Of a DNA stretch of 64,000 nt, positions 30,709 through 44,146 are shown piece by piece. The stretch comes from a virus. Taxonomy: Duplodnaviria > Heunggongvirae > Uroviricota > Caudoviricetes. The position numbers and the translations under genes are program-made. The stretch lies in the IMG/VR virus record IMGVR_UViG_2773857866_000003, one strand, 5' to 3'. The notes below the pieces were generated by a model. That model searched no databases. It had not been told where the DNA came from and saw only the letters and a program-made list of their open reading frames with translations. Position 1 is the first letter of the stretch, and every line of letters begins with the position of its first letter.

Positions 30709-31599
30709 TTATTCCTCCTTAACTACTGCATTTGCACCCTGAACAGTTACCCAACCATGCTGTAATCTTGCCTCTGCCTCTTTCATCTGAATGAGTTCTG
30801 GTGTAATGGAGTTAGATTTCAAATTATTTGCATCTGCCTCCGCCTGAGCTTCGATACGCATTTTTTCTGCTTTTGCTTGAGCCTGTGTTACTGCAATCTG
30901 AGCATCTGCTTCCGCTTGCATTTTTTCGGTTTCTTTTTGAACTTTAATTTTTTCCTGCTCTGCTTCCGCTTGCTGTTTTTCCTGCAAAGCTTTCACTCTA
31001 TCATCAATTGCTGCCTTTAACTTATCGTCAGGATGAACGTCAATAATGGATGCATCCAAAACTTCAATGCCATACGCTTCGCCAAATTCTTCATTTAAAT
31101 ATTCAGTGATTTTGTCGTTGATTTCTGATCTATTTCCACTATATAACTGCATCATACTGTAATCTGTTGTAATTTCAGAAATCTTTGATTTTAACACTGT
31201 TTTCACACGCTGTTCAACAATATCTTCTCCATCCATACCTTTGAATTTCTTATATGTATCTACTACTGTTTCAGGAATATATCTATAGGACATCTGAAAA
31301 CTAATAGAAATACTTGCATCATCAGAAGTAGCAACTTTGAAAGAGTCGTCCCCTTCACTTCCTTCTCTCTTATCTTTTGATAGAATTAACTGTTCATTTC
31401 CAATTGTAAATTCTTTTACGTGAATACCAGGAAGAACAAAATGTACTCCCATGTCCAATACTTCATCTTTTACTCCACCATTCAATGAATATTGAACTCC
31501 TACTCTTCCTGTTGGAATTTTTTCCATCTGGCTCACTGTAAAAACTCCGCCTGCCAATGCAACTACTAAAACAATACTAGCTATAACTTTTTTCTTCAT
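30709..31599 (-). CDS. SPFH/band-7 (stomatin/HflKC-like) membrane protein
   Basis: An N-terminal TM helix followed by an SPFH core (GVQYSLNGGVKDEVLDMGVHFVLPGIHVKEF...), then a coiled-coil tail. Confidence 0.6.
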   Translation of the reverse strand: MKKKVIASIVLVVALAGGVFTVSQMEKIPTGRVGVQYSLNGGVKDEVLDMGVHFVLPGIHVKEFTIGNEQLILSKDKREGSEGDDSFKVATSDDASISISFQMSYRYIPETVVDTYKKFKGMDGEDIVEQRVKTVLKSKISEITTDYSMMQLYSGNRSEINDKITEYLNEEFGEAYGIEVLDASIIDVHPDDKLKAAIDDRVKALQEKQQAEAEQEKIKVQKETEKMQAEADAQIAVTQAQAKAEKMRIEAQAEADANNLKSNSITPELIQMKEAEARLQHGWVTVQGANAVVKEE

Positions 31600-31740
31600 G
31601 GCTTATGGTCTTCCTCCAATTCTTTTTCTATCTTTTTGTCATCTTTTTTGATTGAATTGATAACTTTATTTCCAATCCATACAATTATCAATCCCAACAC
31701 TGCATATCCTAAAACCGCTAAAAGAAATAGAACCCACATA

Positions 31741-32484
31741 TTATTTCATTCCTTTCTTTGCTTTCAGTTCAGCTAACTTCTTATTGATTTCTTCGTCTTT
31801 CATTTTTTTATCCAGACGTTTTTTCTGCACGCTAGCAGAATTTTCATAAGCTATTCTGTTTCCTTCAGACTCTTCTCTTGCTTTTCTGACTCCATCTCTG
31901 ACTTTTTCTAACATTTTATCTTCTTCATTTGAAGACACTGTGGTATCAGCTTTCAAAGATTTTGTAGCTTCTACTGTTTCCAAAGTGAATACGGTTTTTT
32001 CTTTTTCAGCTTTTAACTGTGCCAAATCATCATAGAGCTTATCAACTGTCTCTTTCTGCAACCTTTCGTTCTCTTTCAAATCCTTAATACCTTCTTTGAG
32101 AACTTCCATCTTATCTGTAATTTCTTGCTGCATTTTCAAATATGTTTTAGCCCCTTCATCATCACCACGAGATACGCAAGAGTCAATATCCATATTAACT
32201 TTCATTTCATCTTTTTGGAGTGTTCTTAAATCTTTTTCAAATGCAGATAATTTTCCAAGAATTTGACTATAGTTAGCACTTGCTTTAGAATAATCTTCTT
32301 CTTTCTTTTCAATAGCAGCATTAAAATATGCTTTTGCACCTTCAGGAGTAGATGCATCTTCACTTAATTTTTCATTGATTGTTCCTGTTGCTCTAAGGCG
32401 AATTCTTTTGCCTATTTTTGTAAACAAAAGAATTCCTCCAACAATACCAACAGTTAATAAAAGTAATACCGTTGCGAAAGTCAT
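31741..32484 (-). CDS. PspA/IM30-like coiled-coil protein with N-terminal TM anchor
   Basis: Helical repeats throughout; the N-terminal EDASTPEGAKAY and C-terminal KLAELKAKKG resemble PspA (EDPQKLVRL...LAQLKAKMK). Confidence 0.4.
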   Translation of the reverse strand: MTFATVLLLLTVGIVGGILLFTKIGKRIRLRATGTINEKLSEDASTPEGAKAYFNAAIEKKEEDYSKASANYSQILGKLSAFEKDLRTLQKDEMKVNMDIDSCVSRGDDEGAKTYLKMQQEITDKMEVLKEGIKDLKENERLQKETVDKLYDDLAQLKAEKEKTVFTLETVEATKSLKADTTVSSNEEDKMLEKVRDGVRKAREESEGNRIAYENSASVQKKRLDKKMKDEEINKKLAELKAKKGMK

Positions 32485-33125
32485 TAAGCATCCCTACCTT
32501 CATCAATGTCTAAATCAAATGTTTTAAATAATTCAACCATACCGCCTGTATAACCAGAACCAATTGCCTGAAATTTAAATCCACCGTTATGCTTGTATAA
32601 TCTTCCAAGCTCCACAGCATTTAATTTTTCAAACTTTTCATCTTCTGATAAATCAAAGTTTGCTTCAAAACCTGACGGATTGTCATAGTCATATACTGTA
32701 ACCATTGCATTATTTACCATGCCAAAATTCTGCAATCGTTGAATTGCTCTGAAAATTGTTAAGCAAATTGTAAAGTCTGTTTTGTTTGCTGGAAACTTAT
32801 CAGCGTGAACAATAAAATACTCATCAAAATGTCTCCCATTAAATTCAATACCCTGTGAGTCATCGCCTGTTCTGTTATCTCCAGAGTATTCAACCCACGG
32901 ATAATTTTTTCCATCTCCGTATGTACTAAAATTCACGATATCTGAAGGATATTGAACTTTTTTATCGCTGTTTGTTAAGAACCCATGTATATCAAAATCA
33001 ATATCTCCTTCGCCGGAAAATCTATTCATATCCCAACGCACACCAATGAAAATATTTTTAATGTTGCTTCCATCTTCTTTTGTCATGTTAATTTTTTGAT
33101 TTTTACTCATATCAATTACTGGCAT
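32484..33125 (-). CDS. TerD-domain protein
   Basis: N-terminus IDMSKNQKINMTKE...GVRWDMN...GDIDFDIHGFL matches the TerD pattern (SLSKGgnVsLtK ... GLGWD ... DlDasafll). Confidence 0.6.
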   Translation of the reverse strand: MPVIDMSKNQKINMTKEDGSNIKNIFIGVRWDMNRFSGEGDIDFDIHGFLTNSDKKVQYPSDIVNFSTYGDGKNYPWVEYSGDNRTGDDSQGIEFNGRHFDEYFIVHADKFPANKTDFTICLTIFRAIQRLQNFGMVNNAMVTVYDYDNPSGFEANFDLSEDEKFEKLNAVELGRLYKHNGGFKFQAIGSGYTGGMVELFKTFDLDIDEGRDA

Positions 33126-33137
33126 TTTTTCTTCCTC

Positions 33138-33884
33138 CTATTTATTCGCTAACCAATCTTTATATTGTCTCAAAAGCTCTGTATATAGCTGCTCATCATC
33201 TAATTTTGCAATATCTTTTACAGAGATAAACCCTGTATTATCATTCTCTCTGCCTTTCATGTCGTCCAAAGATTTCAGATATTTAAAATTATCATTTCCA
33301 ATTCCTACAAACTGGACAAATATGTTGTATGCGGATAATTCCCTGATAATGTCATTTGTTTTTTCTTTATCCCAGTTATCTCCATCTGTAATAAACATGA
33401 TAAATGCAGGAATTGTGCTAGGCTCAATATCTTTATAGTGATGAACCATACTTGTTAATACAGGTGCATATTCCGTACCTCCCATGCCCATACGTGCTTT
33501 CAACATTACTTTATCTACATAGTTTTCATAATTCTTTTCAGTAATAACTTCAAGTCTTTCTTCTCCATTTGAAAATAGCCAACATTCCAGTTCTTTATTA
33601 TCATCAAACCTCAAGGCAATAGGAAGAAGTCTTGTAATTACATCCTGTACTTTTCCTTCTCTAAATTCATCGCTCATACTTCCACTATAATCCATTGCAA
33701 CTGCAACTCTTGCCGTATGTTTTGTCATATCAATCTTGTTATCTTTTGACATGTTAATTAAAACTTTATTCAAATTCTCTTTTGACATATCAATACATAC
33801 TTTTTTAGTTTCCTGAGCTGGTGCACTATTGTGCCCAGACTCAGTTTCATTTTTATTTCCATTTAAAAAACTGAAAAATCCCAT
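33138..33884 (-). CDS. vWA-domain protein (TerY-like) with TerD-like N-terminal repeats
   Basis: MIDAS motif VAMDYSGSM, downstream FITDGD, and N-terminal IDMSKENLNKVLINMSKDNKIDMTK repeats. Confidence 0.6.
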   Translation of the reverse strand: MGFFSFLNGNKNETESGHNSAPAQETKKVCIDMSKENLNKVLINMSKDNKIDMTKHTARVAVAMDYSGSMSDEFREGKVQDVITRLLPIALRFDDNKELECWLFSNGEERLEVITEKNYENYVDKVMLKARMGMGGTEYAPVLTSMVHHYKDIEPSTIPAFIMFITDGDNWDKEKTNDIIRELSAYNIFVQFVGIGNDNFKYLKSLDDMKGRENDNTGFISVKDIAKLDDEQLYTELLRQYKDWLANK

Positions 33885-36502
33885 TATTTATTTCTCCTTT
33901 TCTTCATTGTTTTTCTAATAAAATCTGCTAACAGAACGATTGTGGATAATGCTGTTACTGCTAACCACTGAGTTAAGTTCAATGAAGCTGTATGTAATAC
34001 GCTTCCCCCAAACTGTACAAGAGCAATAGTTCCTACGAAAATCCCAATAGCAATTCGATAGAATAATTTATTCTTGCTTAATCCTTTAAACAGGTTTCTA
34101 CTATCTGTTCTAAGAGTAAAGCCATTTAATACCGCCATAAAGCAAAGTAAAGCAAATCTCGCTGATAATCCAGCGGCTTCAGTTGCAAATAAATGCTTAA
34201 TTGGACTAAAAATCATTAAACCAAACGCTAAAGAGAAGATACATGCGTTAATAGCAATATGTTTTTTACTTCCATTTACAAATAATCCTTCACCTTTCTT
34301 TAAAGGTTGTTCTTTCATATATTCATCTTTTGGAGGTTCACCACCAAATGATAAGGAGTTCAAAGAGTCCATAATAATGTTGATAATAAGAATAAGAGCT
34401 GATGTTAAGAAAGAGCCTGTTAAAAAGACTGGATATAAGAAGTTCATAGCAAGAAGTGAATAATTGATTGGCAACTGGAAATTCAAGAACATAAGAATAT
34501 TGTGCATAAATGTTCTTCCAAGTTTTACTCCTTTTACAATAGAAGCAAAGTTATCGTCTACAAGGATAATATCACCAGCTTCTTTTGCCACATCAGTGCC
34601 ACTATTCATGGCGAAACCAACGTCAGATTTTGTTAATGCTGGTGCATCATTTGTACCGTCACCTGTCATTGCTGTGGAATATCCAAGCTCCTGAGCTAAT
34701 GTAATAAGTCTCAATTTTGTTGTAGGAGAACATCTAGCAATAACTCTTAAACGTGGAATAATGTCTTTAATTTCTTCATCTGTCATTCCAGAAAACTCTG
34801 CATCAGTTAAAGCCATATCACCTTTTTCATAAATACCAGCTTCTTGAGCTACTGCAACTGCTGTTTCAATACAGTCTCCTGTAATTTCTACTACTGTAAT
34901 TCCAGCCTCTTTTGCTGTCTTAACAGCATCAGGAACTTCTTTACGAACTGGATCTTGTACTCCAATTACTGCTGTGAATACTAAATCTTCTGGTATTACA
35001 TTTTCCTCTAAAGCTTCCATATTGTATGCAAATGCAATACATCTCATTGCTTTCGTGGTAAGGTCATAGATTTCACTCAAGATATTTATTCTATCCTCAT
35101 CTGTCATTTCGACAATTTTCCCATTTTCTAGTCTGTATTTACAATTGGATAAAATCTTTTCAGGAGCACCCTTATAATAGGAAGTATCTCCAAACTCACA
35201 GCTTGTAGAAAACGCTGAATACTTAAATTGACTATTGAAAGGCTGTTTTTTAGATTTTGGGTTTTGAGTCAAAATAGAATTGAATTCAGATTGATTAAGA
35301 AGACTAAGCATTGCTCTATCTATTGAATTGCCACCAGTAATTTTTCCTTTTTCATCAAATAAGCTTCCGCTTGTTAAAGCTATATTTTCTTTAAGAATTT
35401 CTGGTAGATTATCTTTATTTATTTTTTGAGATTTCATGTCACCAGTAATAATTTCTTTTGGTGTCATAACACCTGTTGTCAATGTTCCTGTTTTATCTGT
35501 ACATACGTAATTCACATAAGCCAATTCTGGTATCTTTGAAGGATTTTTTGTAAGAATATTTGCCTTTTCCATTGTCTTAACATTCATTTTAGTAACAAAT
35601 TTTACAATCATTGGTAATCCTTCTGGTACAGCAGCTACAATAATTGTCAGGGCTACTGAAATGTTTTCAGCGATTGTTCTTATTATCTGTAACACATCTC
35701 CTGAAAAGTATTCTCTAAATCCAACTTCTAAGATACCTGTTGCTGTTGCGATTAAAAATCCTCCAAAGGCTGCCACTGTTCCCCATTTAGAAATAAAATC
35801 AGCTAACTTATCTAATGCAATATCTAAAGCAGTTTTAGTAGGCTCTAATGTTTGCATTTTTACCAGTGTGTCTCCATTGACAGTGTTAATACCAACTGTC
35901 TGTACTAACATTTTTGCTTCACCAGACATAACAGTTGTTCCGGCAAATACGCACGTTTCATCTGTATAATGGTCTGTAGTTATTTCTTCTGGATATTTAA
36001 ATCCTGAAATGTAATGTTTTTTACATTCTTTTGTTTCACCATTAATTGCAGCGTTACTTACAGCAATTTCACCTTCAACAATGTAACCATCTGCAAAGAT
36101 TTCCTGTCCCATTTCAAGACATATAATATCGCCAACTACAATATCATCTTTATTGATTTTTACAACAGAACCATTTCTAATTACATTACAATATCTAACC
36201 GCCGTTTTTGCTCTTAGACTATTATTTGATTTCTGTATTGATAGATTTGTTCTAACATTAATTCCACTCACAATTGCTAACACTGCTAAAATAATAACAG
36301 GCTCACTAAAACTTTCTACTCCTAGAAATGCAAGAGCAAAGAAAACTCCAGCCATCATGATTAGAATAATTGTGATTTTATCCTTTAATCCGTCTGTAAA
36401 AAAATTAAACCACGTCTTTTGCTTTGGTTCTGGCAGCTTATTGCTACCATATTTTTGTCTGCTTTTTTCTACTTGCTGGTCATTTAAACCATTCAAATTC
36501 AT
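33884..36502 (-). CDS. P-type cation-transporting ATPase (type II, Ca2+/Mg2+-like)
   Basis: Phosphorylation motif CTDKTGTLT, hinge motif TGDGTNDAPAL, and ~10 TM helices. Confidence 0.85.
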   Translation of the reverse strand: MNLNGLNDQQVEKSRQKYGSNKLPEPKQKTWFNFFTDGLKDKITIILIMMAGVFFALAFLGVESFSEPVIILAVLAIVSGINVRTNLSIQKSNNSLRAKTAVRYCNVIRNGSVVKINKDDIVVGDIICLEMGQEIFADGYIVEGEIAVSNAAINGETKECKKHYISGFKYPEEITTDHYTDETCVFAGTTVMSGEAKMLVQTVGINTVNGDTLVKMQTLEPTKTALDIALDKLADFISKWGTVAAFGGFLIATATGILEVGFREYFSGDVLQIIRTIAENISVALTIIVAAVPEGLPMIVKFVTKMNVKTMEKANILTKNPSKIPELAYVNYVCTDKTGTLTTGVMTPKEIITGDMKSQKINKDNLPEILKENIALTSGSLFDEKGKITGGNSIDRAMLSLLNQSEFNSILTQNPKSKKQPFNSQFKYSAFSTSCEFGDTSYYKGAPEKILSNCKYRLENGKIVEMTDEDRINILSEIYDLTTKAMRCIAFAYNMEALEENVIPEDLVFTAVIGVQDPVRKEVPDAVKTAKEAGITVVEITGDCIETAVAVAQEAGIYEKGDMALTDAEFSGMTDEEIKDIIPRLRVIARCSPTTKLRLITLAQELGYSTAMTGDGTNDAPALTKSDVGFAMNSGTDVAKEAGDIILVDDNFASIVKGVKLGRTFMHNILMFLNFQLPINYSLLAMNFLYPVFLTGSFLTSALILIINIIMDSLNSLSFGGEPPKDEYMKEQPLKKGEGLFVNGSKKHIAINACIFSLAFGLMIFSPIKHLFATEAAGLSARFALLCFMAVLNGFTLRTDSRNLFKGLSKNKLFYRIAIGIFVGTIALVQFGGSVLHTASLNLTQWLAVTALSTIVLLADFIRKTMKKRRNK

Positions 36503-38118
36503 TTGCTTTTTCCCTCCAGTTCTTTAAATCTATCTTCAATAATCTGATACCTTTCTGTATTAAGCTGTTTTAATAGGCATTTGTACGGGTCTAATTCATT
36601 ACTTAATACCATATTCATTATGTTTACAGAATATCCTGATACAAGTGCTACTCCATTCGCATTTTCTCTAACAGGGATTGTTCCTGTTCTTGAACAAATA
36701 TTCCAAAACACCAGTCTTGGTAATTTATATCCGTATCGTTCATATTCTTTAGCAAATTCATCAAACATTGCTTTATCTGTTCTTCCTGAAGTCATACAGT
36801 CAAATTCCATATCCGAAATCATCAATAGCGTGTTTGGCAAATCAGATTGTTTCATGTTGTTTTTTACAGCCGTGTCTAATAATAACTGGAATACTCTTTC
36901 AATATTCGTATTACTGCAATCTGTATTTTTTAAAGTAATCTGAATTTTTTCTTTAAGATTTTGACAGTTGCTAATATCAACAAACCTTGGTCTATTTCCA
37001 AATGTCATAAACTTATTATTGAATTGACCAGAACATCTCTCAGCAAAGTAAATAGAAAGTGCTGTTGCAACTTCTTCTGCTTGCACTGAAGAATTTCTAT
37101 CTATTGGTTGATACATACTTCCAGAACCATCTTGAATAACCATAATATTTTCTGCTGACTGAATAGTATCTTTTTGATTTTTCCAAAGTTGTTCTAATGT
37201 CTCATCATATTTTTTTAATTTATAACTCCAACCATATCCATCTACAGTAACATACTGATGCACAATATCGTGAGGAAAGTTAGTAGAAGCATTGATTTTT
37301 ACTCCTTCTTTTCCGTTAGCCAAATCTTCAAGATACTGTTGTCTTCTTTCTGGATCGTGTTTAAGAAAAGCGTTTCGATATAATAGATTTGCTTTAGAAG
37401 GTACTGAATTGTAGTCAATTGCTGACCATTGATTTGCACACATAAAAGTTTCTACCAAATTGAGTTTCTTACGCAATTTCACCAACATACGATTGTATGT
37501 CTTATCATCGAGTTCTAACCCTTCAATAATAAGTCTTGCATAATGTCTTGATATATGACTTTCTGCATTACGTTTTGGTAGCCACTTCGCAAGCAATGAT
37601 ATTGGTTTATCTTCAGTATAATTTTTAATATCTTCTTGAAGCTGTGCGTTTATCATTTTAATTACTATACTGTTAAGTTGTGTATCAAGCAATACCCATG
37701 TATCATCATATCGTCCATATTCTGCTATATATGGAATAAATAGTGTCATCTCATGTGGTCTAAAGTCAGCCATATACTTGATAATTCTGTGAAAAGTATC
37801 TCTTTCACCCATCCCACCTCTAATATCACGTAAGAAGAATAGCCATTTCCATGCATACATTGGGTTTTCATAATAAGCAGCTTGGAACAAGTTGATTAAT
37901 TCTTTGTCTGTTTTCTTTCGTAGCGAACTTGTCATATAGTTAATATCTACCAAAACATGACCTGAAGACTTATATCCAATTGCACCGTTTTCACTTATGG
38001 ACACATTATATGGCAATTCATTTAGTGTTTCTTTTACAGCTTCTGCAAAATTTAATCCTTTTGGTTTCAAATATAATTCGCCATCTGCTACAAAATCTTT
38101 TATAAAATTGTTTTGCAT
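36499..38118 (-). CDS. Ro60/Rsr-like TROVE plus vWA protein
   Basis: 539 aa (human Ro60 is 538 aa). NFPHDIVHQYVTVDGYGWSYKLKKYDETLEQLWKN...IMVIQDGSGSM aligns to recalled Ro60 [34 protein letters not shown]...LLAVDVSASM. The downstream vWA motifs NTDCS and LLMISDMEFD correspond to Ro60 GGTDCS and VFIVFTDNETF. Confidence 0.55.
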   Translation of the reverse strand: MQNNFIKDFVADGELYLKPKGLNFAEAVKETLNELPYNVSISENGAIGYKSSGHVLVDINYMTSSLRKKTDKELINLFQAAYYENPMYAWKWLFFLRDIRGGMGERDTFHRIIKYMADFRPHEMTLFIPYIAEYGRYDDTWVLLDTQLNSIVIKMINAQLQEDIKNYTEDKPISLLAKWLPKRNAESHISRHYARLIIEGLELDDKTYNRMLVKLRKKLNLVETFMCANQWSAIDYNSVPSKANLLYRNAFLKHDPERRQQYLEDLANGKEGVKINASTNFPHDIVHQYVTVDGYGWSYKLKKYDETLEQLWKNQKDTIQSAENIMVIQDGSGSMYQPIDRNSSVQAEEVATALSIYFAERCSGQFNNKFMTFGNRPRFVDISNCQNLKEKIQITLKNTDCSNTNIERVFQLLLDTAVKNNMKQSDLPNTLLMISDMEFDCMTSGRTDKAMFDEFAKEYERYGYKLPRLVFWNICSRTGTIPVRENANGVALVSGYSVNIMNMVLSNELDPYKCLLKQLNTERYQIIEDRFKELEGKSK

Positions 38119-38158: not shown

Positions 38159-38232
38159 TCAGAACACTAGGACTCGAACCTAGAACGAAAGCTTCCAACA
38201 CTAACCGAGTTACCCATTACTCTCATATTCTG
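38159..38232 (-). ncRNA. tRNA-like element, 74 nt (possible degenerate tRNA with UGG anticodon loop GTTGGAA; weak anticodon stem)
   Basis: Acceptor CAGAATA/TGTTCTG with one GU pair, a T arm CTAGG-TTCGAGT-CCTAG, and a D loop containing GGG. Confidence 0.35.
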
Positions 38233-38235
38233 TTG

Positions 38236-38362
38236 TGCGGAGAAGCAAGACTCGAACCTGCGACATCTGGCTCCCTAAGCAATATGTATGTTGCTGCATG
38301 TAACGAATATTTTACATCGCTACAATTTTAACAGTGCTCTATCCATCTGAGCTATTCTCCGC
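38236..38362 (-). ncRNA. tRNA-like RNA with ~55 nt insertion in the anticodon-arm position (Y-RNA/YrlA-like candidate), 127 nt
   Basis: 8 bp acceptor GCGGAGAA/TTCTCCGC, D arm GCTCAGATGGATAGAGC, T arm GCAGG-TTCGAGT-CTTGC, and an insert carrying TTGTAG and TTACATGCAGCAA. Confidence 0.5.
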
Positions 38363-38368
38363 ATATTT

Positions 38369-38496
38369 TGCAGGACAACCGGACTCGAACCGATAACCAC
38401 GGCGTTAAAAGCGCATTAGAAATAATTGCTGTATGTAACATATTTATAACAATACTACAAAGTTTACGTGCTCTAGCCAATTGAGCTATGTCCTGC
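38369..38496 (-). ncRNA. tRNA-like RNA with ~55 nt insertion (paralogue of 38236..38362), 128 nt
   Basis: 8 bp acceptor GCAGGACA/TGTCCTGC, D arm GCTCAATTGGCTAGAGC, T arm ATCGG-TTCGAGT-CCGGT, and an insert carrying TTGTAG and TTACATACAGCAA. Confidence 0.5.
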
Positions 38497-38519
38497 ATAT
38501 TAAATTTTCTCAGCTACAT

Positions 38520-38623
38520 TTAATTGTGATGGATTTGAACCATCTCGAAATATTTTGTCATAATACTTTCTTTAACCATTTGTTTTATATTTTGCTGTAT
38601 GTAACTGATTTGAATTTTTCATT
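38520..38623 (-). ncRNA. degenerate tRNA-like/structured RNA carrying the same TTACATACAGCAA motif
   Basis: The 3' T arm GATGG-TTCAAAT-CCATC and a 9 bp imperfect terminal helix are present, but there is no canonical D arm. Confidence 0.25.
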
Positions 38624-38836
38624 CACAATAAATCGTTACTTTATTGCAGTTCTCTTATGAACTTCTGCATTTCACAATGCAGTTTTACCCTATTCTCTTT
38701 ACCTCTACTTAGAGTGCTACGAATTAGAAATATTGTTTCCTTTTACGATTGGGGCATGTCCTTGAGTAAATTTATTTGGAAGTGATTTATATGTTTGAAA
38801 ATATATTTCAAAATTTTAAAGTTATAGCTCAAGGAA

Positions 38837-38910
38837 TTGCGGAGAGTGGATTTGAACCACTGATCTTTAGCTGATGAGGCTAACGAGCTTCCAGACTGCT
38901 CTACTCCGCA
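38837..38910 (-). tRNA. tRNA-Met (anticodon CAT), 74 nt
   Basis: The hand-folded cloverleaf is complete: acceptor TGCGGAG/CTCCGCA, D GAGC-AGTCTGGAA-GCTC, anticodon stem TTAGC/GCTAA with loop CTCATCA, T AGTGG-TTCAAAT-CCACT. Confidence 0.65.
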
Positions 38911-38981
38911 TCAGAATTGCAGTTATTCCTGCAACTCATTTAAAAGTAAATAAAAAAGATAACCTCTCCAACAAAGGAGCT

Positions 38982-39091
38982 TGCAATGAGCAAGAGTCGA
39001 ACTTGCGACCTGCTGGTTTGTTTTGCTGTCTACAATGTATTTTTAACAACATTGTTTTTGCCAGCCGTTCTCCCAACTGAACTATCATTGC
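38982..39091 (-). ncRNA. tRNA-like RNA with intact anticodon stem but a 44 nt loop, 110 nt
   Basis: Acceptor GCAATGA/TCATTGC, D GTTC-AGTTGGGA-GAAC, anticodon stem GCTGG/CCAGC enclosing CAAAAACAATGTTGTTAAAAATACATTGTAGACAGCAAAACAAA, and T GCAAG-TTCGACT-CTTGC. Confidence 0.5.
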
Positions 39092-39174
39092 ATTTATTTT
39101 TACCTTTACCCTGTAGAGTATTGCATTTTTGGGGGTGTGTTAGGGGTGTTTAAAAATACAGAGTAAAGATAAAA

Positions 39175-39246
39175 CTGGGATAGCTGGATTCGAACCAGCG
39201 AATACAGGAGTCAAAGTCCTGTGCCTTACCGCTTGGCGATACCCCA
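39175..39246 (-). tRNA. tRNA-Gln (anticodon TTG), 72 nt
   Basis: Acceptor TGGGGTA/TATCCCA, D GCC-AAGCGGTAA-GGC, anticodon stem CAGGA/TCCTG with loop CTTTGAC, T GCTGG-TTCGAAT-CCAGC. Confidence 0.8.
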
Positions 39247-39293
39247 AGAAAGGAGTCTACTATTTGAAAAAAATCATAAAGCAAATAGTAGAG

Positions 39294-39441
39294 AGATAAG
39301 CAATGGATTTGAACCATCTCTATAATGTAAAGTCTGTTTCATGTGCACATTCCACATTCATCGCATCATATTTTACTCGTTCCATATCATACTTTCCTTA
39401 GTTCGTGCACGTTCCAAAGATTTCTGTTGAGTATGCTTATC
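39294..39441 (-). ncRNA. 148 nt structured RNA with tRNA-like acceptor and T arm enclosing a ~130 nt insert that has two GTGCAC-centred palindromes
   Basis: The termini GATAAGC/GCTTATC pair, and there is a T arm GATGG-TTCAAAT-CCATT. The interior holds ACGTGCACGAAC and ATGTGCACATG palindromes and a TTTACAT motif; there is no D arm. Confidence 0.35.
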
Positions 39442-39585: not shown

Positions 39586-39659
39586 TGGGGCTTATAGGAC
39601 TCGAACCTATGACTTCTCGGTTATGAGCCGAGCGTTCTAACCAACTGAACTAAAGCCCC
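39586..39659 (-). tRNA. tRNA with CAT anticodon (Met or lysidine-Ile2), 74 nt
   Basis: Acceptor GGGGCTT/AAGCCCC, D GTTC-AGTTGGTTA-GAAC, anticodon stem CTCGG/CCGAG with loop CTCATAA, T ATAGG-TTCGAGT-CCTAT. Confidence 0.8.
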
Positions 39660-39692: not shown

Positions 39693-41627
39693 TTACAAAA
39701 GTGTTAGAAATTCTTCTTCGCTTATAATTGGAATACCAAGCTCTTTTGCTTTTTTATTTTTAGAAGAATTTGACGTTGTATCATTGTTAATCAGATAATG
39801 TGTCTTTGAAGTCACACTCCCTGTTACTTTGCCTCCGTGAGTTTCAATTGTAGATTTTAAATCATTTCTATTTGAGAACTTATTCAAACTTCCTGTAATC
39901 ACAAATGTTTTGTTGGTTAATGAAAGGAGTTCCTCCGTTTTTATTTTTTCTTCAAACACAAGAATTTTAACAAGTTGCTCAATTTCTTCTGATTTATAAT
40001 CTTCTTTAAACCAATCGTATATAGATTTATTTAATACATCTCCAAAACCGTCTAATTTACTAAAATCAAATTTCTCTTTCATGGATTTTATCAAATCATC
40101 CCATGTATCAAAATGATTAAATATCTCTCTTGATTGACTTCTTCCAATTTTAGGTATTCCTAATGCATACAACAATCTTTCAGGACTTACTTGTTTACTT
40201 TTCTCTATTGACAGGAATAATTTTTCAACAGATTTTTTACCAAATCCCGGTATTGACATCCAAGTTGCCTTATACTGAGATAAATTGTAAAAATCTTTAA
40301 ATGTCTTTAACCATCCTTTTTTCACGAGAAAATCAACAGTAGCCTCTGACATTCCCTCAATATTCATTGCGTCTCTTTCACAAAAATGTACAAATTTTCC
40401 AATAAGCTTTTCTGGACAGTGTGTATTCATGCACATTAGAACCTCTGTATCATTAGAGCAAATTATATTAGTGTCTCCTCCACATATAGGACATTGTTTT
40501 GGGATATCTAAATTGTTGCTCTTTGTGCTGTTTTCAACAATTTGGGGGATTATCATATTAGACTTGATAACTTTGATTGTATCTCCTATGCCGAGTTTCA
40601 ATTCTTTAATAATACTGATATTATGCACACTGGCACGACTTACCGTAGTCCCTTCCAGCTCTACCGGCTCAAAAATTGCTACCGGATTAAGTAAGCCTGT
40701 TCGTGAAGGACTCCATTCAATCTTTTTTAAAGTAGTTTCCGCAACTTCATCTTTCCATTTGAAAGCAAACGAATGTCTTTCAAATTTCGAAGTATTGCCA
40801 AGAGAATTGCCATAATCAGTATTGTTATATGAAACTACAAGACCGTCTGTCGGAATGTCATTATTTTCGATTTTTCTTTTAAAAAATTTTACACATTCTT
40901 CTATATTGTCTTTATTTACAGGATAATGTTCTACAACATTAAATCCTATTTCAGAAAGCCAATTAAATTGTTTGTCCATTGTCTTAAATTTACTACCAGA
41001 GATTAGTCTAAATATAATGACTTGGACATTTCTTTTTTGACTTTCGGATGCATCAAGTAAGCGAATACTTCCTGAAGCAAGATTTCTTGGGTTTTTATAT
41101 CTTGCTCCAACATCTTCTATCTGAGAATTAATTCTGTCAAAATCAGTATATGAAATAACTGCTTCACCTCTAAGAATTAGTTTCTCTTTATATGGAATTT
41201 TCAATGGTACTCCTTTACATCTTGATACATTTTGAGTGATAATTTCACCTGTTGTACCGTTTCCTCTTGTCACGGCTTTTTGCAGCTCGCCATTGTCGTA
41301 AGTAAGAACAACAGTTAGTCCATCTAATTTCCATGACAAAATTCCATCTTTATCGCTTATCCAGCTTTTTAAAGTTTCAACACTTTTTGTTTTGTCTAAA
41401 GAAAGCATCTTCTTTTCATGCTTTTCTTTTGGCAAGAAGTCTAAAAAATCGTTTGCTACAGATTGTGTTGGAGAATCGGAATAAATAACTCCTGTTTCTT
41501 TCTCCATATCTACCAGCTTATCGTAGAGTTTGTCATAATCATAGTTAGACATGATTTCTCTACTTTCCTGATAGTAAGCAACGTTAGCTGCTTTTAATTG
41601 TTCTATGATAGCTCTCATTTCATTCAT
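39693..41627 (-). CDS. ligA: NAD-dependent DNA ligase
   Basis: Adenylation motif WKLDGLTV (KxDG), a Cys4 zinc finger (CPICGGD...C..C), HhH repeats and a C-terminal BRCT-like region. Confidence 0.85.
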   Translation of the reverse strand: MNEMRAIIEQLKAANVAYYQESREIMSNYDYDKLYDKLVDMEKETGVIYSDSPTQSVANDFLDFLPKEKHEKKMLSLDKTKSVETLKSWISDKDGILSWKLDGLTVVLTYDNGELQKAVTRGNGTTGEIITQNVSRCKGVPLKIPYKEKLILRGEAVISYTDFDRINSQIEDVGARYKNPRNLASGSIRLLDASESQKRNVQVIIFRLISGSKFKTMDKQFNWLSEIGFNVVEHYPVNKDNIEECVKFFKRKIENNDIPTDGLVVSYNNTDYGNSLGNTSKFERHSFAFKWKDEVAETTLKKIEWSPSRTGLLNPVAIFEPVELEGTTVSRASVHNISIIKELKLGIGDTIKVIKSNMIIPQIVENSTKSNNLDIPKQCPICGGDTNIICSNDTEVLMCMNTHCPEKLIGKFVHFCERDAMNIEGMSEATVDFLVKKGWLKTFKDFYNLSQYKATWMSIPGFGKKSVEKLFLSIEKSKQVSPERLLYALGIPKIGRSQSREIFNHFDTWDDLIKSMKEKFDFSKLDGFGDVLNKSIYDWFKEDYKSEEIEQLVKILVFEEKIKTEELLSLTNKTFVITGSLNKFSNRNDLKSTIETHGGKVTGSVTSKTHYLINNDTTSNSSKNKKAKELGIPIISEEEFLTLL

Positions 41628-42054: not shown

Positions 42055-43053
42055 CTATTGGCTATATTTTAAAATATGTGTACTAATTATACTACGCATA
42101 TAAGTCATGTCAATATTAAATTTGTCCAGTATCGGTTTGATAACAAAATTACTATCATCTTCTTCAAGTTTGCTTAACGGAACGCCTAAAGCGTTTGCTA
42201 CATCTATTGTTACAGAAGCTATACCGGAACGCCTTATGCTTTCAAAATTAAGGTTTGGAAAATAAAAATCATCACTATTTCTCAACCTCATCAATCTATC
42301 TTGGATATTTTTTCTTCTTCTTTCGATAAATAATCTCAAATCTTTAGTTTCGCTGGTATCTAAATTTCTGCTTGTAATCCTTGTTTTAATAACATATTCG
42401 CTATTTTCGTATATACCTATTGCTCTACCAATATTATCTATGTACTCTATCTCTTTATCAGCCAACTCAGCTACTTTAATAAATAAGTCAGAGACTACTG
42501 TCGTTCTGGTAAAAATGATTTTATCGCTCACGGGGTCGTATTCGTATATTTTCAACTTTTTATTGCTAAAATCTATATTAGACAATTTGACAAGAGTAAT
42601 TTCCGAAAGTCCATAGCCAGACAATCCAGACCATGCAGCTACGAGCGCAAATGCTCCTTGAGCATTGTTATTTTTAAGCATTTTATCTACAAGCATTTCA
42701 AACATTTCCTTACTAATTACTGCCAATTTGCTATTTCCGCTATTTGCTATTTCTCTTATTTTATCTTGGCTTATGGTCGTTTTTTTGATTGATTTGTCAT
42801 ATTCTTCTGAACAATATACAACATAACGGTTTATTCTTCTTTGGATTTCCCTCACCCTATAAATAGATGTAAAGTTGAACATTTTTATCAACTCTATTAA
42901 CTGTTCTCTATTAAAGTACGCTAAATCACAATTGTATTTTTCTTCCAATATAGAAGATTTTTGGAACAATGTAAGTACATCCATCATTTCTTTCGTATCG
43001 ACCTTATATTTTAATTTTTTTACATAGCTATTTTTCACATCCTCATTATACAT
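42055..43053 (-). CDS. hypothetical protein, possibly a degenerate tyrosine-recombinase-like partner of the adjacent integrase
   Basis: 332 aa with a basic helical C-terminal half (IERRRKNIQDRLMRLR...ESIRRSGIA...MTYMRSI), but no clear R-H-R-Y catalytic set. Confidence 0.25.
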   Translation of the reverse strand: MYNEDVKNSYVKKLKYKVDTKEMMDVLTLFQKSSILEEKYNCDLAYFNREQLIELIKMFNFTSIYRVREIQRRINRYVVYCSEEYDKSIKKTTISQDKIREIANSGNSKLAVISKEMFEMLVDKMLKNNNAQGAFALVAAWSGLSGYGLSEITLVKLSNIDFSNKKLKIYEYDPVSDKIIFTRTTVVSDLFIKVAELADKEIEYIDNIGRAIGIYENSEYVIKTRITSRNLDTSETKDLRLFIERRRKNIQDRLMRLRNSDDFYFPNLNFESIRRSGIASVTIDVANALGVPLSKLEEDDSNFVIKPILDKFNIDMTYMRSIISTHILKYSQ

Positions 43054-43132
43054 AGGCTTTCCTCAACTTTCTGTTATGTACAGTAGTATATTATCATCTT
43101 TTGGAAATTTTTTCCAGTAAATGTAAATAAAC

Positions 43133-44146
43133 TTATTTTAGCAGGTTATTGATTATCGCTCCTCTTACTTCTTTCATTTCTTGTTTGTTTACCGATGCGT
43201 ACCTTTTCGTGGTTGTAGGACTACTGTGTCCGAGCAATTCTGATGTCAAATATATATCTCCCTTCATTCGATATACATTTGTACCAAATGTTCTACGCAA
43301 CTCATGTGGGCTTATTTTTCTATCTATCCCCTCAGAATATTTTGCAATAATTTTTTGAATTGCGCCAACTCCGAGCCTTTTACATCCATCAGATTTTTTA
43401 GAAACAAATAAAGCATCTGTTGCTTCTATTCCCGGAATTAGTTTCCTCCTATCGCACCATCTACGAATGATATCCATAAGTTCTTTTGTGACCTCGTACT
43501 CAAATTCTTTATCTCTCTTATCAATTGTATGTATTAAACAATTTTCGAAATCAATATCACTCACATTGATTTCACTCAATGCTGATACTCTACATCCAGT
43601 TGATAGAGGAATAAGGAACAGCAACCTATCTCTATCCTGATATTTCTTTTGAGACGTTCTGGCGTGTTTTGACCCAACTCCCTCATTGAGATTTTTTATA
43701 ATAATCGAAATCTCATCTTCTGTCAAATATGAAATTTCGTCTTTAAGCTTTACAGAAGGTCTTTTAATCGCTTTTTCCATTGGATTTTCTGATATATACT
43801 CAAATCTATAAAGAAAATCAAAGAAATTATGTAAGCTGCTGATTTGAGTTGCGATTGTTGCGTTAGATATTGGTTTTCCAGAAATTAACTCCTGATTTCT
43901 TTTAGTAAAATAGCGGTTAATTACAGATGTAGTGATGTTTTCTAATTTAAGCTCTGCAATTTCAACTCCCATTCCATCAGCAATACTATTCAAAAACATT
44001 TCTACATCTCCAAGGTATTTCCTTTTTGTCGCAGCAGTGTTATTCGCCATACTATAATAATAATCTCTTAACCATATCGGTTTCTCTTTTATATGGTTTT
44101 CAAGCTTTTCTTCTATGGCAAGCTTATGCTCAAATCTTCCGGTCAT
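43133..44146 (-). CDS. tyrosine recombinase / phage integrase
   Basis: Box I TGCRVSALSEINVSD and C-terminal HELRRTFGTNVY...LLGHSSPTTTKRYASV (H-x-x-R ... H ... Y). Confidence 0.8.
   Translation of the reverse strand: MTGRFEHKLAIEEKLENHIKEKPIWLRDYYYSMANNTAATKRKYLGDVEMFLNSIADGMGVEIAELKLENITTSVINRYFTKRNQELISGKPISNATIATQISSLHNFFDFLYRFEYISENPMEKAIKRPSVKLKDEISYLTEDEISIIIKNLNEGVGSKHARTSQKKYQDRDRLLFLIPLSTGCRVSALSEINVSDIDFENCLIHTIDKRDKEFEYEVTKELMDIIRRWCDRRKLIPGIEATDALFVSKKSDGCKRLGVGAIQKIIAKYSEGIDRKISPHELRRTFGTNVYRMKGDIYLTSELLGHSSPTTTKRYASVNKQEMKEVRGAIINNLLK

Follow-up and report, generated by a model that had tools for sequence, protein, structure and literature searches.

Bacterial Y RNAs of the YrlA and YrlB types are encoded in groups beside a Ro60 ortholog, on the same strand, and combine a helix, whose 5′ strand carries a conserved GNCGAA sequence contacted by Ro60, with either a permuted tRNA-like domain or a T arm alone (PMC4201824; 10.1101/312249). 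The Ro60 of Thermus phage phiLo has two Y-like RNAs as ligands, both encoded upstream of its gene (PMC12135203), and known loci in general have several Y RNAs upstream of Ro60 on the same strand, with the 5′-strand motif and in some cases only a T arm (PMC4201824, PMC12135203). Here, we describe an RNA module that is inserted into tRNA-like elements, or stands alone among them, in an array next to the gene for a Ro60-like protein. The array lies in a 64,000-nucleotide (nt) stretch of DNA from a virus of the Caudoviricetes (IMG/VR record IMGVR_UViG_2773857866_000003), the whole of which we call the window. A reading of the bare sequence, hereafter the original prediction, had pointed to conserved motifs in the inserted segments of otherwise divergent tRNA-like shells.

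In archaea and red algae, tRNA genes can carry bulge-helix-bulge introns outside position 37/38, including in the anticodon stem, and there are permuted tRNA genes with a paired leader and trailer; in algae and archaea, such permuted tRNAs pass through a circular intermediate as they mature. The genes described here likewise have insertions outside 37/38, in the anticodon stem among other places, and a permuted order with paired leader and trailer, whereas the archaeal and red-algal introns lack the conserved sequence motif and the linked Ro60-like gene. Lak megaphages have tRNA introns, called “enigmatic,” without Rfam matches (Devoto et al. 2019; PMC6784885). As in those genes, two oversized tRNA genes of the window become canonical once an internal segment is removed (51 nt in element E1, 52 nt in element E2), and again there is no Rfam match. 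The published introns differ in being 79–114 nt long and built from a hairpin, AAAUUAAAC, and a nested acceptor/T-arm minihelix; their position is given as the anticodon loop instead of the stem, they were published without a proposed protein partner, and CAGCAA, invariant in our module, is absent from the portion covered here of the text of that study's supplementary tables, including Table S6 (PMC6784885). Burroughs and Aravind predicted a band-7-associated tRNA in Ro/RtcB neighborhoods (cited in 10.1101/312249), which shares with our elements a tRNA-like RNA tied by gene neighborhood to Ro60 and a Band-7/SPFH protein. As described in the citing paper, however, b7a-tRNA, as this RNA is called, resembles an authentic tRNA, with no CAGCAA module mentioned there, and we see no RtcB here.

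With the Ro60/Y RNA systems, the locus shares a protein of predicted Ro60 fold (a HEAT-repeat ring plus a vWA domain), several small RNAs encoded beside the protein gene on the same strand, and an RNA consisting of a helix, a conserved motif beside the 5′ strand, and a tRNA-like part. Some relatives have the circularly permuted order of YrlA, with a terminal helix followed by the motif, a T arm, a closed acceptor hairpin, a D arm, and the returning helix strand, and the Rfam YrlA model (RF02553) scores two copies from Enterococcus phage EFDG1 at 43.2 bits (E 6.5e-7) and 34.2 bits, below its gathering score of 69. Unlike in the known systems, arrays here reach ~9 copies; unlike YrlA, which has no anticodon stem-loop, the RNAs here keep a real one, and in the window the module sits inside nonpermuted tRNAs with open acceptor ends.

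The Inserts Are Copies of One Structured RNA Module

The array is a run of RNA genes on the minus strand, bounded by the gene for an NAD-dependent DNA ligase (39693–41627) and a 539-amino-acid open reading frame (ORF; 36499–38118). All elements that bear an insert or stand alone (E1 to E5) are on this strand. They and the adjacent protein gene are listed here with the basis for each; R1 is the covariance model described below, and related loci are cited by number (L001 and so on).

36499–38118, minus strand: gene for the Ro60-like protein (539 amino acids), directly downstream of the array and on the same strand; proposed partner of the module
38237–38362, minus strand: E1, a tRNA shell with a 51-nt insert (sequence, composite anticodon stem-loop search, orthologs)
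38281–38331, minus strand: insert of E1 (composite stem-loop search, alignment to R1)
38370–38496, minus strand: E2, a tRNA shell with a 52-nt insert (Rfam tRNA model, 37 bits at 38370–38495)
38415–38466, minus strand: insert of E2 (composite stem-loop search, best R1 match of the window)
38511–38607, minus strand: E4, a stand-alone copy, called a degenerate element in the original prediction (sequence, fold, comparison with L002)
38982–39091, minus strand: E3, a tRNA shell with the module in a 44-nt loop (Rfam tRNA model, 52 bits)
39017–39060, minus strand: loop of E3 with the module (sequence; R1 aligns the full 7-base-pair helix)
39295–39441, minus strand: E5, a possible diverged member (sequence reading and fold; weak, with no confirmation from relatives)

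Both E1 and E2 are complete tRNA shells interrupted in the 5′ strand of the anticodon stem. E1 has an acceptor stem of 8 base pairs (bp; the eighth being G-1:C73), a D arm, and a T arm, and in the composite stem-loop search, removal of 51 nt restores the perfect anticodon arm CUGGC-UUAGGGA-GCCAG (Pro, AGG), which places the insertion between tRNA nucleotides 29 and 30. Removal of 52 nt from E2, also with an 8-bp acceptor, restores CGGCG-CUUUUAA-CGCCG (Lys, UUU), with the insertion between nucleotides 28 and 29; the acceptor, D, T, and local anticodon-stem pairs of E2 covary across relatives. This explicit composite test replaced a low-stringency ARAGORN deletion scan, which was too permissive. 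The unusual 8-bp acceptor previously noted in two of the shells is real in E1 and E2, and its −1:73 pair is kept in relatives, as G:C in five sequences and as A:U in L008 (reading of L008 4298–4411), with 8 bp also found in a permuted copy of L161. Orthologs of E1 occur in L001, L002, L291, L293, and L294. The shell and insert of E2 are nearly identical in the window and L001, but the loop CUUUUAA (Lys) of the window (38400–38414) is AUGAUAA (Ile) in L001 (~1135–1150), and across the family the same E2-type shell bears Lys, Ile, Asn, Ser-like, and Cys anticodons.

In E3, the 5-bp anticodon stem GCUGG/CCAGC is intact, and the insert sits in the loop, not the stem. The stem covaries (GCAGC/GCUGC in L004, GCACG/CGUGC in L006), and the loop reads CAAAA-ACAAUGU-loop-ACAUUGU-AGA-CAGCAA-AACAAA; the composite search could restore no canonical U33 loop in E3. 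With the threshold relaxed, the Rfam tRNA model detects E3 and E2 with 43 and 65 nt, respectively, in place of the anticodon region. Among the E3-type shells (window 39017–39060; L004 2956–3070; L006 5575–5700; L001 125–271), the best restored loops have A34 (AAA, AAU, AUG), two of them without U33, and A34 recalls the A34 anticodons listed for Lak phages.

The stand-alone element E4 has the helix sequences of the inserts in reversed order: CAGUUACAU leads into ACAGCAA and pairs with AUGUAGCUG ~80 nt downstream, and this long-range helix encloses an anticodon-like hairpin, AGUAUU-AUGACAA-AAUAUU, and the T arm GAUGGUUCAAAUCCAUC. At the same place, L002 has CAGAUACAU/AUGUAUCUG, which covaries with the E4 helix. 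E5 combines a helix GAUAAGC/GCUUAUC and a T arm with AUACUCAACAGAAAU in place of the expected AUACAGCAA, and may tentatively be counted in the family on its sequence and fold.

The inserts are copies of one conserved structured RNA module and do not look like decaying pseudogenes. This module is a helix of 6–9 bp followed by 2–3 nt (usually UA or UAA), an invariant single-stranded CAGCAA, and A/U. Its helix is UGUAGC(G)/(C)GUUACA in E1 and E2 and ACAAUGU/ACAUUGU in E3; the E1 insert reads UUAAAAU-UGUAGCG-loop-CGUUACA-UG-CAGCAA-linker and the E2 insert UAAACUU-UGUAGU-loop-GUUACA-UA-CAGCAA-UUAUUUCUAAU. Seen in this light, the three motifs that the original prediction listed as common to the inserts are of unequal value. 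ACA(T)RCAGCAA holds for E1 and E2, which contain TTACATRCAGCAA at 38291–38303 and 38426–38438, but not strictly for E3, which has only TAGACAGCAA; the sharing of the motif by the supposedly degenerate E4 is confirmed (38592–38604). These are the only three occurrences of the 13-mer TTACATRCAGCAA in 64 kb, all within 38291–38604 and on the minus strand. All three inserts do contain TTGTAG, but this hexamer is common (64 matches against 36 expected in the window); together, TTGTAG (UGUAGC) and TTACA (GUUACA of TTACATRCAGCAA) are the two strands of one helix. TGTTAWAAAT, in contrast, is not a shared feature: its two matches (E2 and E3) equal the chance level of 1.9, and E1 has only the 9-mer TGTTAAAAT in a nonhomologous place, at the 5′ junction of the insert instead of in the hairpin loop. 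A bare CAGCAAW is likewise at chance across the window (28 against 23.7), whereas TTACATRCAGCAA is found nowhere outside the array, and the distinctive part is the helix with CAGCAA in this array.

A covariation analysis had been suggested as a check. Among 65 independent copies of the hairpin form, all drawn from outside the window's lineage, each of the 7 helix pairs covaries, with 109 doubly changed cells against 34 after shuffling, and none of 500 shuffles reaches the observed score. In the long-range versions (217 in number), each strand fits the partner in its own copy, with 7.8 of 8 bp formed against 4.8 after partner shuffling. Both sets were chosen for having the helix, so that the percentage paired is high by construction and the shuffled controls are the informative part. 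Individual compensatory changes are also seen among the orthologs of diverged relatives, from GUAGCG/CGUUAC to GCAGCG/CGUUGC in L293 and from UGUAGU/GUUACA to UGUAGC/GCUACG in L002. G-U pairs occur in both orientations among the long-range versions, which, with the strand specificity of the motif, indicates pairing at the RNA level. The long-range consensus is (U)AAGRCNC-NNA-CAGCAA ... GNGYCUU(G), and in the hairpin form a 3–4-nt loop closes this helix, as in AAGUCUU-GGCA-AAGACUU-UAA-CAGCAA; the UGUAG helix strand is specific to the window's lineage. A covariance model of the hairpin module built without that lineage (R1) places E2, E1, E3, and E4 among the top six matches of the window (15.7, 14.0, 13.8, and 13.0 bits). 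Rfam scans of the window, its relatives, and EFDG1 gave no family match for the module, and our literature searches found no description of it.

Across loci, the module occurs in several topologies: (a) stand-alone, usually enclosing a hairpin with an anticodon-like 7-nt loop (CUUUUAA, CUGCAAA, CUUGAAA, and CUCAUAA being the commonest; 178 strict elements counted); (b) stand-alone but including a T arm, the E4 type; (c) flanking an entire tRNA as its paired leader and trailer (L161 7982–8092, minus strand; L123 2756–2860); (d) circularly permuted, in the order helix, CAGCAA, anticodon arm, T arm, 8-bp closed acceptor, D arm, and helix (L161 7790–7933, minus strand; EFDG1; mycobacteriophage LeBron); and (e) inserted in a normal tRNA, as in E1 to E3. 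A circular permutation converts form (d) exactly into form (e). In all protein-seeded loci, we found 175 module sites flanked by a D arm and a T arm, 93 of which give a perfect 5-bp composite anticodon arm with U33 and R37 after removal of 36–59 nt. Among these composite arms, the insertion follows stem nucleotide 2 in 57 cases and nucleotide 3 in 14, and the commonest anticodons are GUU (26), UUU (15), AGG (7), and UGU (6).

The Module Accompanies a Gene for a Ro60-like Protein

The product of the ORF at 36499–38118, which starts ~120 nt beyond E1, matches the Pfam families DUF2828 and DUF7788 and is built as a HEAT-repeat ring with a vWA domain, in which the DGSGS MIDAS motif (for metal ion-dependent adhesion site) is invariant. 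We modeled it with AlphaFold from 18 homologs (mean predicted local distance difference test score, 81.5), and the top eight PDB matches of this model in Foldseek are all Ro60 (Thermus phage phiLo, human, and Xenopus), over the full length and with E values from 4e-10 to 6e-5. The model thus predicts a Ro60 fold over the full length of the protein. At the sequence level, phmmer against the phiLo Ro60 of the PDB reaches only E 0.004, limited to the MIDAS stretch. Mycobacteriophage homologs are annotated as “Ro-like RNA binding protein,” and DUF2828 is present in 710 phage records, some of them labeled only “RNA-binding protein.” A homolog 99% identical to the protein of the window is encoded on a 637-kb contig, which makes a megaphage of similar size the probable source of the window.

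The syntenic relatives (L001–L008, L291–L294) have orthologous E1, E2, and E4 and many further copies of the module. More distant loci were not reached by a single-protein scan of viral contigs, which returned nothing, and required an alignment as query, with which we identified 80 IMG/VR loci at 45–51% protein identity, where the synteny with ATPase, Ter, and ligase genes is gone. ACAGCAAW is nevertheless found on the gene strand within 2 kb upstream in 78 of these 80 loci and within 300 nt in 70, at an upstream density of 2.2/kb compared with 0.026/kb on the opposite strand (~85-fold) and 0.087/kb elsewhere; the last copy usually lies 30–150 nt before the Ro60-like gene. Among 76 loci from GTDB genomes, mostly Lachnospiraceae and other Clostridia and probably prophages, 61 are positive (1.0/kb against 0.06/kb). 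Pooling the protein-found loci, 134 of 150 have ACAGCAAW on the gene strand in the 2 kb upstream, and 68 of these 134 show no canonical tRNA by ARAGORN over the same distance. In the reverse direction, the outcome was less clear-cut: 49 of 120 loci seeded with AAGACACATACAGCAAW contain a Ro60-like gene, always on the same strand.

Cultured phages extend the picture obtained from this search of other phages, which the original prediction had proposed. In Enterococcus phage EFDG1 and Bacillus phage Tsamsa, modules occupy the gap between a tRNA array and the Ro60-like gene, with rare CAGCGA(A) variants of the motif in both. Modules lie among the tRNAs downstream of the gene in the Felix-O1-like Salmonella phage BPS15Q2, and three of them lie downstream of gp53 in mycobacteriophage LeBron, with no tRNAs nearby. 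In Prevotella phage Lak-B7, one CAGCAA module lies just upstream of the gene for a DUF2828 homolog, at a locus that has no tRNAs.

Interpretation of the Module

From the structure and covariation of the module, the intact tRNA halves around it, the modeled fold of the neighboring protein, and the genomic association, we infer that what has been grafted into the tRNAs is probably the cognate module bound by the Ro60-like protein, so that E1 to E3 would be tRNA/Y-RNA chimeras and E4 a Y-like RNA. The ring-shaped protein would bind the helix and the CAGCAA strand, as Ro60 binds the Y-RNA stem mainly through the conserved 5′-strand motif; the module may be retained in the mature RNA, and the attached tRNA body, including its real anticodon stem-loop, would be a tRNA-mimicking effector part. 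Such a complex would most likely act in tRNA-related quality control, repair, or decoy activity during infection. The loop swap in near-identical E2 shells fits a displayed stem-loop better than a coevolving tRNA identity. The original prediction took the insert to be under selection as a protein-binding or processing site, as opposed to pseudogene decay, and the comparative evidence supports it, because the module is kept with compensatory changes, the tRNA halves form perfect anticodon stems, and the module tracks the gene for a Ro60-fold protein.

Several observations speak against a Y-RNA-type module. The protein belongs to DUF2828/DUF7788 and its sequence does not match Pfam TROVE (PF05731), the family of the known systems, and the motif here is NA-CAGCAA, not the GNCGAA(N)G of known bacterial Y RNAs. 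The YrlA match in the window (38313–38423, 32.5 bits against a gathering score of 69) is an artefact of adjacency across two neighboring genes: it combines the E2 3′ half with the E1 5′ half, and their acceptor strands do not pair. R1 gives each window element an E value of only 0.09–0.5, individually nonsignificant, because the model is short. Of the 80 motif-seeded loci that have at least 3.5 kb of downstream sequence or in which the gene was found, 31 have no Ro60-like gene nearby; most of these are in large tRNA arrays, which implies that the module is also a feature of tRNA arrays. Finally, perfect composite anticodon stems and a fixed insertion site are also expected of a true, excised intron.

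That the segments are indeed genuine tRNA introns seems unlikely to us, although it is the alternative with the most in its favor and the two readings are not mutually exclusive. The module would then be a splicing signal: an endonuclease of the phage or host would cut out the segment and an RNA ligase would rejoin the halves, perhaps on the Ro60-like protein as a platform, to yield functional tRNA-Pro, tRNA-Lys, and others. The 93 of 175 sites that regain a perfect stem with U33 and R37, mostly with insertion after nucleotide 2 or 3, are what such splicing would produce; the commonest anticodons (GUU, UUU, GAU, and UGU) match codons frequent in AT-rich genomes, and permuted copies could mature through a circular intermediate like the permuted tRNAs of algae and archaea. 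An RNA-ligase-like gene is a neighbor in L054, LeBron encodes an RNA ligase and a polynucleotide kinase (PMC13148394), and related Lak megaphages have the “enigmatic” introns (PMC6784885). Splicing fails to account for the many copies that lack a tRNA body, namely the 178 stand-alone elements, the LeBron and Lak-B7 loci, and the 68 loci with no canonical tRNA, and for the E3-type shells, which regain no canonical loop (no U33), and it sits poorly with an anticodon loop that was swapped within an almost identical shell. We know of no splicing endonuclease in the hosts of these phages, and inspection of the junctions (CG|UAAA...UAAU|GCG and CUG|UUAA...AUU|GC), with no formal search, revealed no bulge-helix-bulge. 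For a group I intron, the inserts (37–52 nt) are too short, ~200 nt or more being needed, those of E1 and E2 lie in a stem, and the Rfam scans gave no intron match, with none to group I up to E 10.

The module might instead be only a processing or regulatory signal, either an RNase site that splits tRNA arrays or a 5′-untranslated region (UTR) operator of the downstream gene or both, with no dedicated ribonucleoprotein (RNP) function. Its frequent position immediately behind the 3′ end of a tRNA, or on both sides of one as paired leader and trailer (as in the topology (c) examples of L161 and L123), its abundance in large tRNA arrays without an adjacent DUF2828 gene, and the placement of the last copy shortly before the gene would suit this idea, which we nonetheless regard as quite improbable. 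An RNase site needs neither an invariant CAGCAA nor a covarying helix kept from phages of Actinobacteria to megaphages of Bacteroidota, the insertion into anticodon stems and the YrlA-like permuted architecture would remain unexplained, and an operator in the gene's own 5′ UTR would itself imply that the Ro60-like protein binds the motif. There is least room for selfish or neutral DNA, in which case the tRNA genes would have been disrupted by recent duplications or a small mobile element and would now be decaying. Copies within one genome do have a common helix sequence (GUUACA in the window, AGACAC in L006), hairpin copies resemble the joined ends of stand-alone copies, and some arrays contain homing-endonuclease genes. 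Recent tandem duplication, which the original prediction named as an explanation that would make the conservation uninformative, is contradicted by orthologous E1/E2 pairs that keep their position across lineages whose neighboring proteins are 52–84% identical. Moreover, the flanking halves remain perfectly complementary and covary, the strand-specific signal and tolerance of G-U pairs point to action at the RNA level, and the tight link to one protein family is not expected of such DNA, leaving it a very small chance. Both of these alternatives fit the data worse than a binding module of the Ro60-like protein.

Further candidates were considered and set aside. In a tmRNA (transfer-messenger RNA)-like reading, a GCA resume codon after ACA opens short UAA-ended frames in E4 and L002, but L001, E1, and E2 are inconsistent with it, AT-rich sequence has many stops anyway, and both ARAGORN and Rfam fail to find a tmRNA in the window; the array of L006 does contain a real one. 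A promoter on either strand is disfavored by a poorly spaced −35-like box (TTGCTG) and by the strand specificity and G-U pairs, which favor an RNA feature. An integron attC-like or other recombinase site was suggested by TTAGGC ends and by recombinase genes at 42055–44146, which are unlinked to the module beyond the megaphage lineage. Finally, GTAG heads of the REP/RAYT type are not supported, since UGUAG is lineage-specific and simply one strand of the helix.

If the binding-module reading is correct, real tRNAs can accept a Y-RNA-type protein-binding module as a graft, the arrangement being one of four (inserted, permuted, flanking, and stand-alone). One or more classes of the oversized megaphage tRNA genes called “enigmatic introns” would thereby gain an identity and the large DUF2828 family an RNA partner, and the Ro60/Y-RNA principle would cover two protein families and two recognition motifs. 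We further propose, with considerable reserve, a widespread and so far undescribed phage RNP that ranges from Felix-O1-like phages and Herelleviridae to mycobacteriophages and megaphages, in which a Ro60-like ring is tethered through helix-CAGCAA to genuine anticodon stem-loops. It may be a decoy or repair platform against host anticodon nucleases, which would account for the rapid change of the anticodon loops and for the predominance of Asn and Lys anticodons, or it may be an “intron” system for tRNAs that depends on a protein, the first in bacterial viruses, with anticodon-stem insertion and permuted versions. Candidate functions are tRNA quality control, repair, and counter-defense against anticodon nucleases, and the presence of the module in cultured phages of E. 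coli/Salmonella, Enterococcus, Bacillus, and Mycobacterium makes the function of a phage Ro60-like RNP directly testable.

Other Features of the Array and Its Surroundings

Besides the module-bearing elements, the array contains three canonical tRNAs called by ARAGORN (Met, Gln, and Met) and one weak tRNA-like gene:

38159–38232, minus strand: weak tRNA-like gene between E1 and the Ro60-like gene (Rfam tRNA model, 36 bits), in the same place in L001, L002, and L004
38837–38910, minus strand: canonical tRNA-Met (ARAGORN and Rfam)
39174–39247, minus strand: canonical tRNA-Gln (UUG) (ARAGORN and Rfam)
39586–39659, minus strand: canonical tRNA-Met, first gene of the array (ARAGORN and Rfam)

The weak gene has anticodon-stem mismatches, yet its position is kept, and the L004 version has a perfect stem with the loop AUCGGAA. 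Between tRNA-Met and E4, the minus strand of 38630–38830 is a conserved noncoding stretch with no Rfam match, whose core (38646–38665) is an invariant GAAGUUCAUAAGAGAACUGC that is also found in L001, L004, and L008. The homologous RNA-gene arrays of related megaphage contigs (L004 1763–2276; L006 4511–4819) contain a GOLLD RNA, whose 160 bits exceed the gathering score, and a tmRNA (89 bits).

Downstream of the Ro60-like gene, 30709–36502 (minus strand) encodes a conserved set of proteins: a P-type cation ATPase, a vWA-TerF-like protein, TerD, a PspA-like protein, and an SPFH/Band-7 protein (30709–31599). A homolog of the latter recurs near the Ro60-like gene in many otherwise unrelated loci (e.g., L014 7204–8196), which recalls the predicted band-7-associated tRNA systems. 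Other recurrent neighbors of the Ro60-like gene encode a class-V aminotransferase (cysteine-desulfurase-like), an RNA-ligase-like protein (weak Pfam match), and a radical SAM protein (L054 6635–9113; L014 8269–9432; L035 7226–8182; L241 4642–6411), suggesting a context of tRNA modification or repair. Upstream of the ligase gene, the recombinase genes at 42055–44146 (minus strand) are two adjacent tyrosine-recombinase genes (MrpR-like N-terminal domain; phage integrase family), a pair that is kept in the megaphage lineage (L006, L008).

The phage lineage of the window is known for stop-codon recoding, and the window-wide excess of TTGTAG, whose count of 64 is reached in none of 100 shuffles, might relate to TAG usage. 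In EFDG1 (L289 2340–2760), a second conserved hairpin, GUUCC...GGAAC, followed by AUAAAGAA, precedes each CAGCAA element, and consensus-like −35/−10 promoter boxes stand before the first element in both EFDG1 and Tsamsa (L290 2395–2428).

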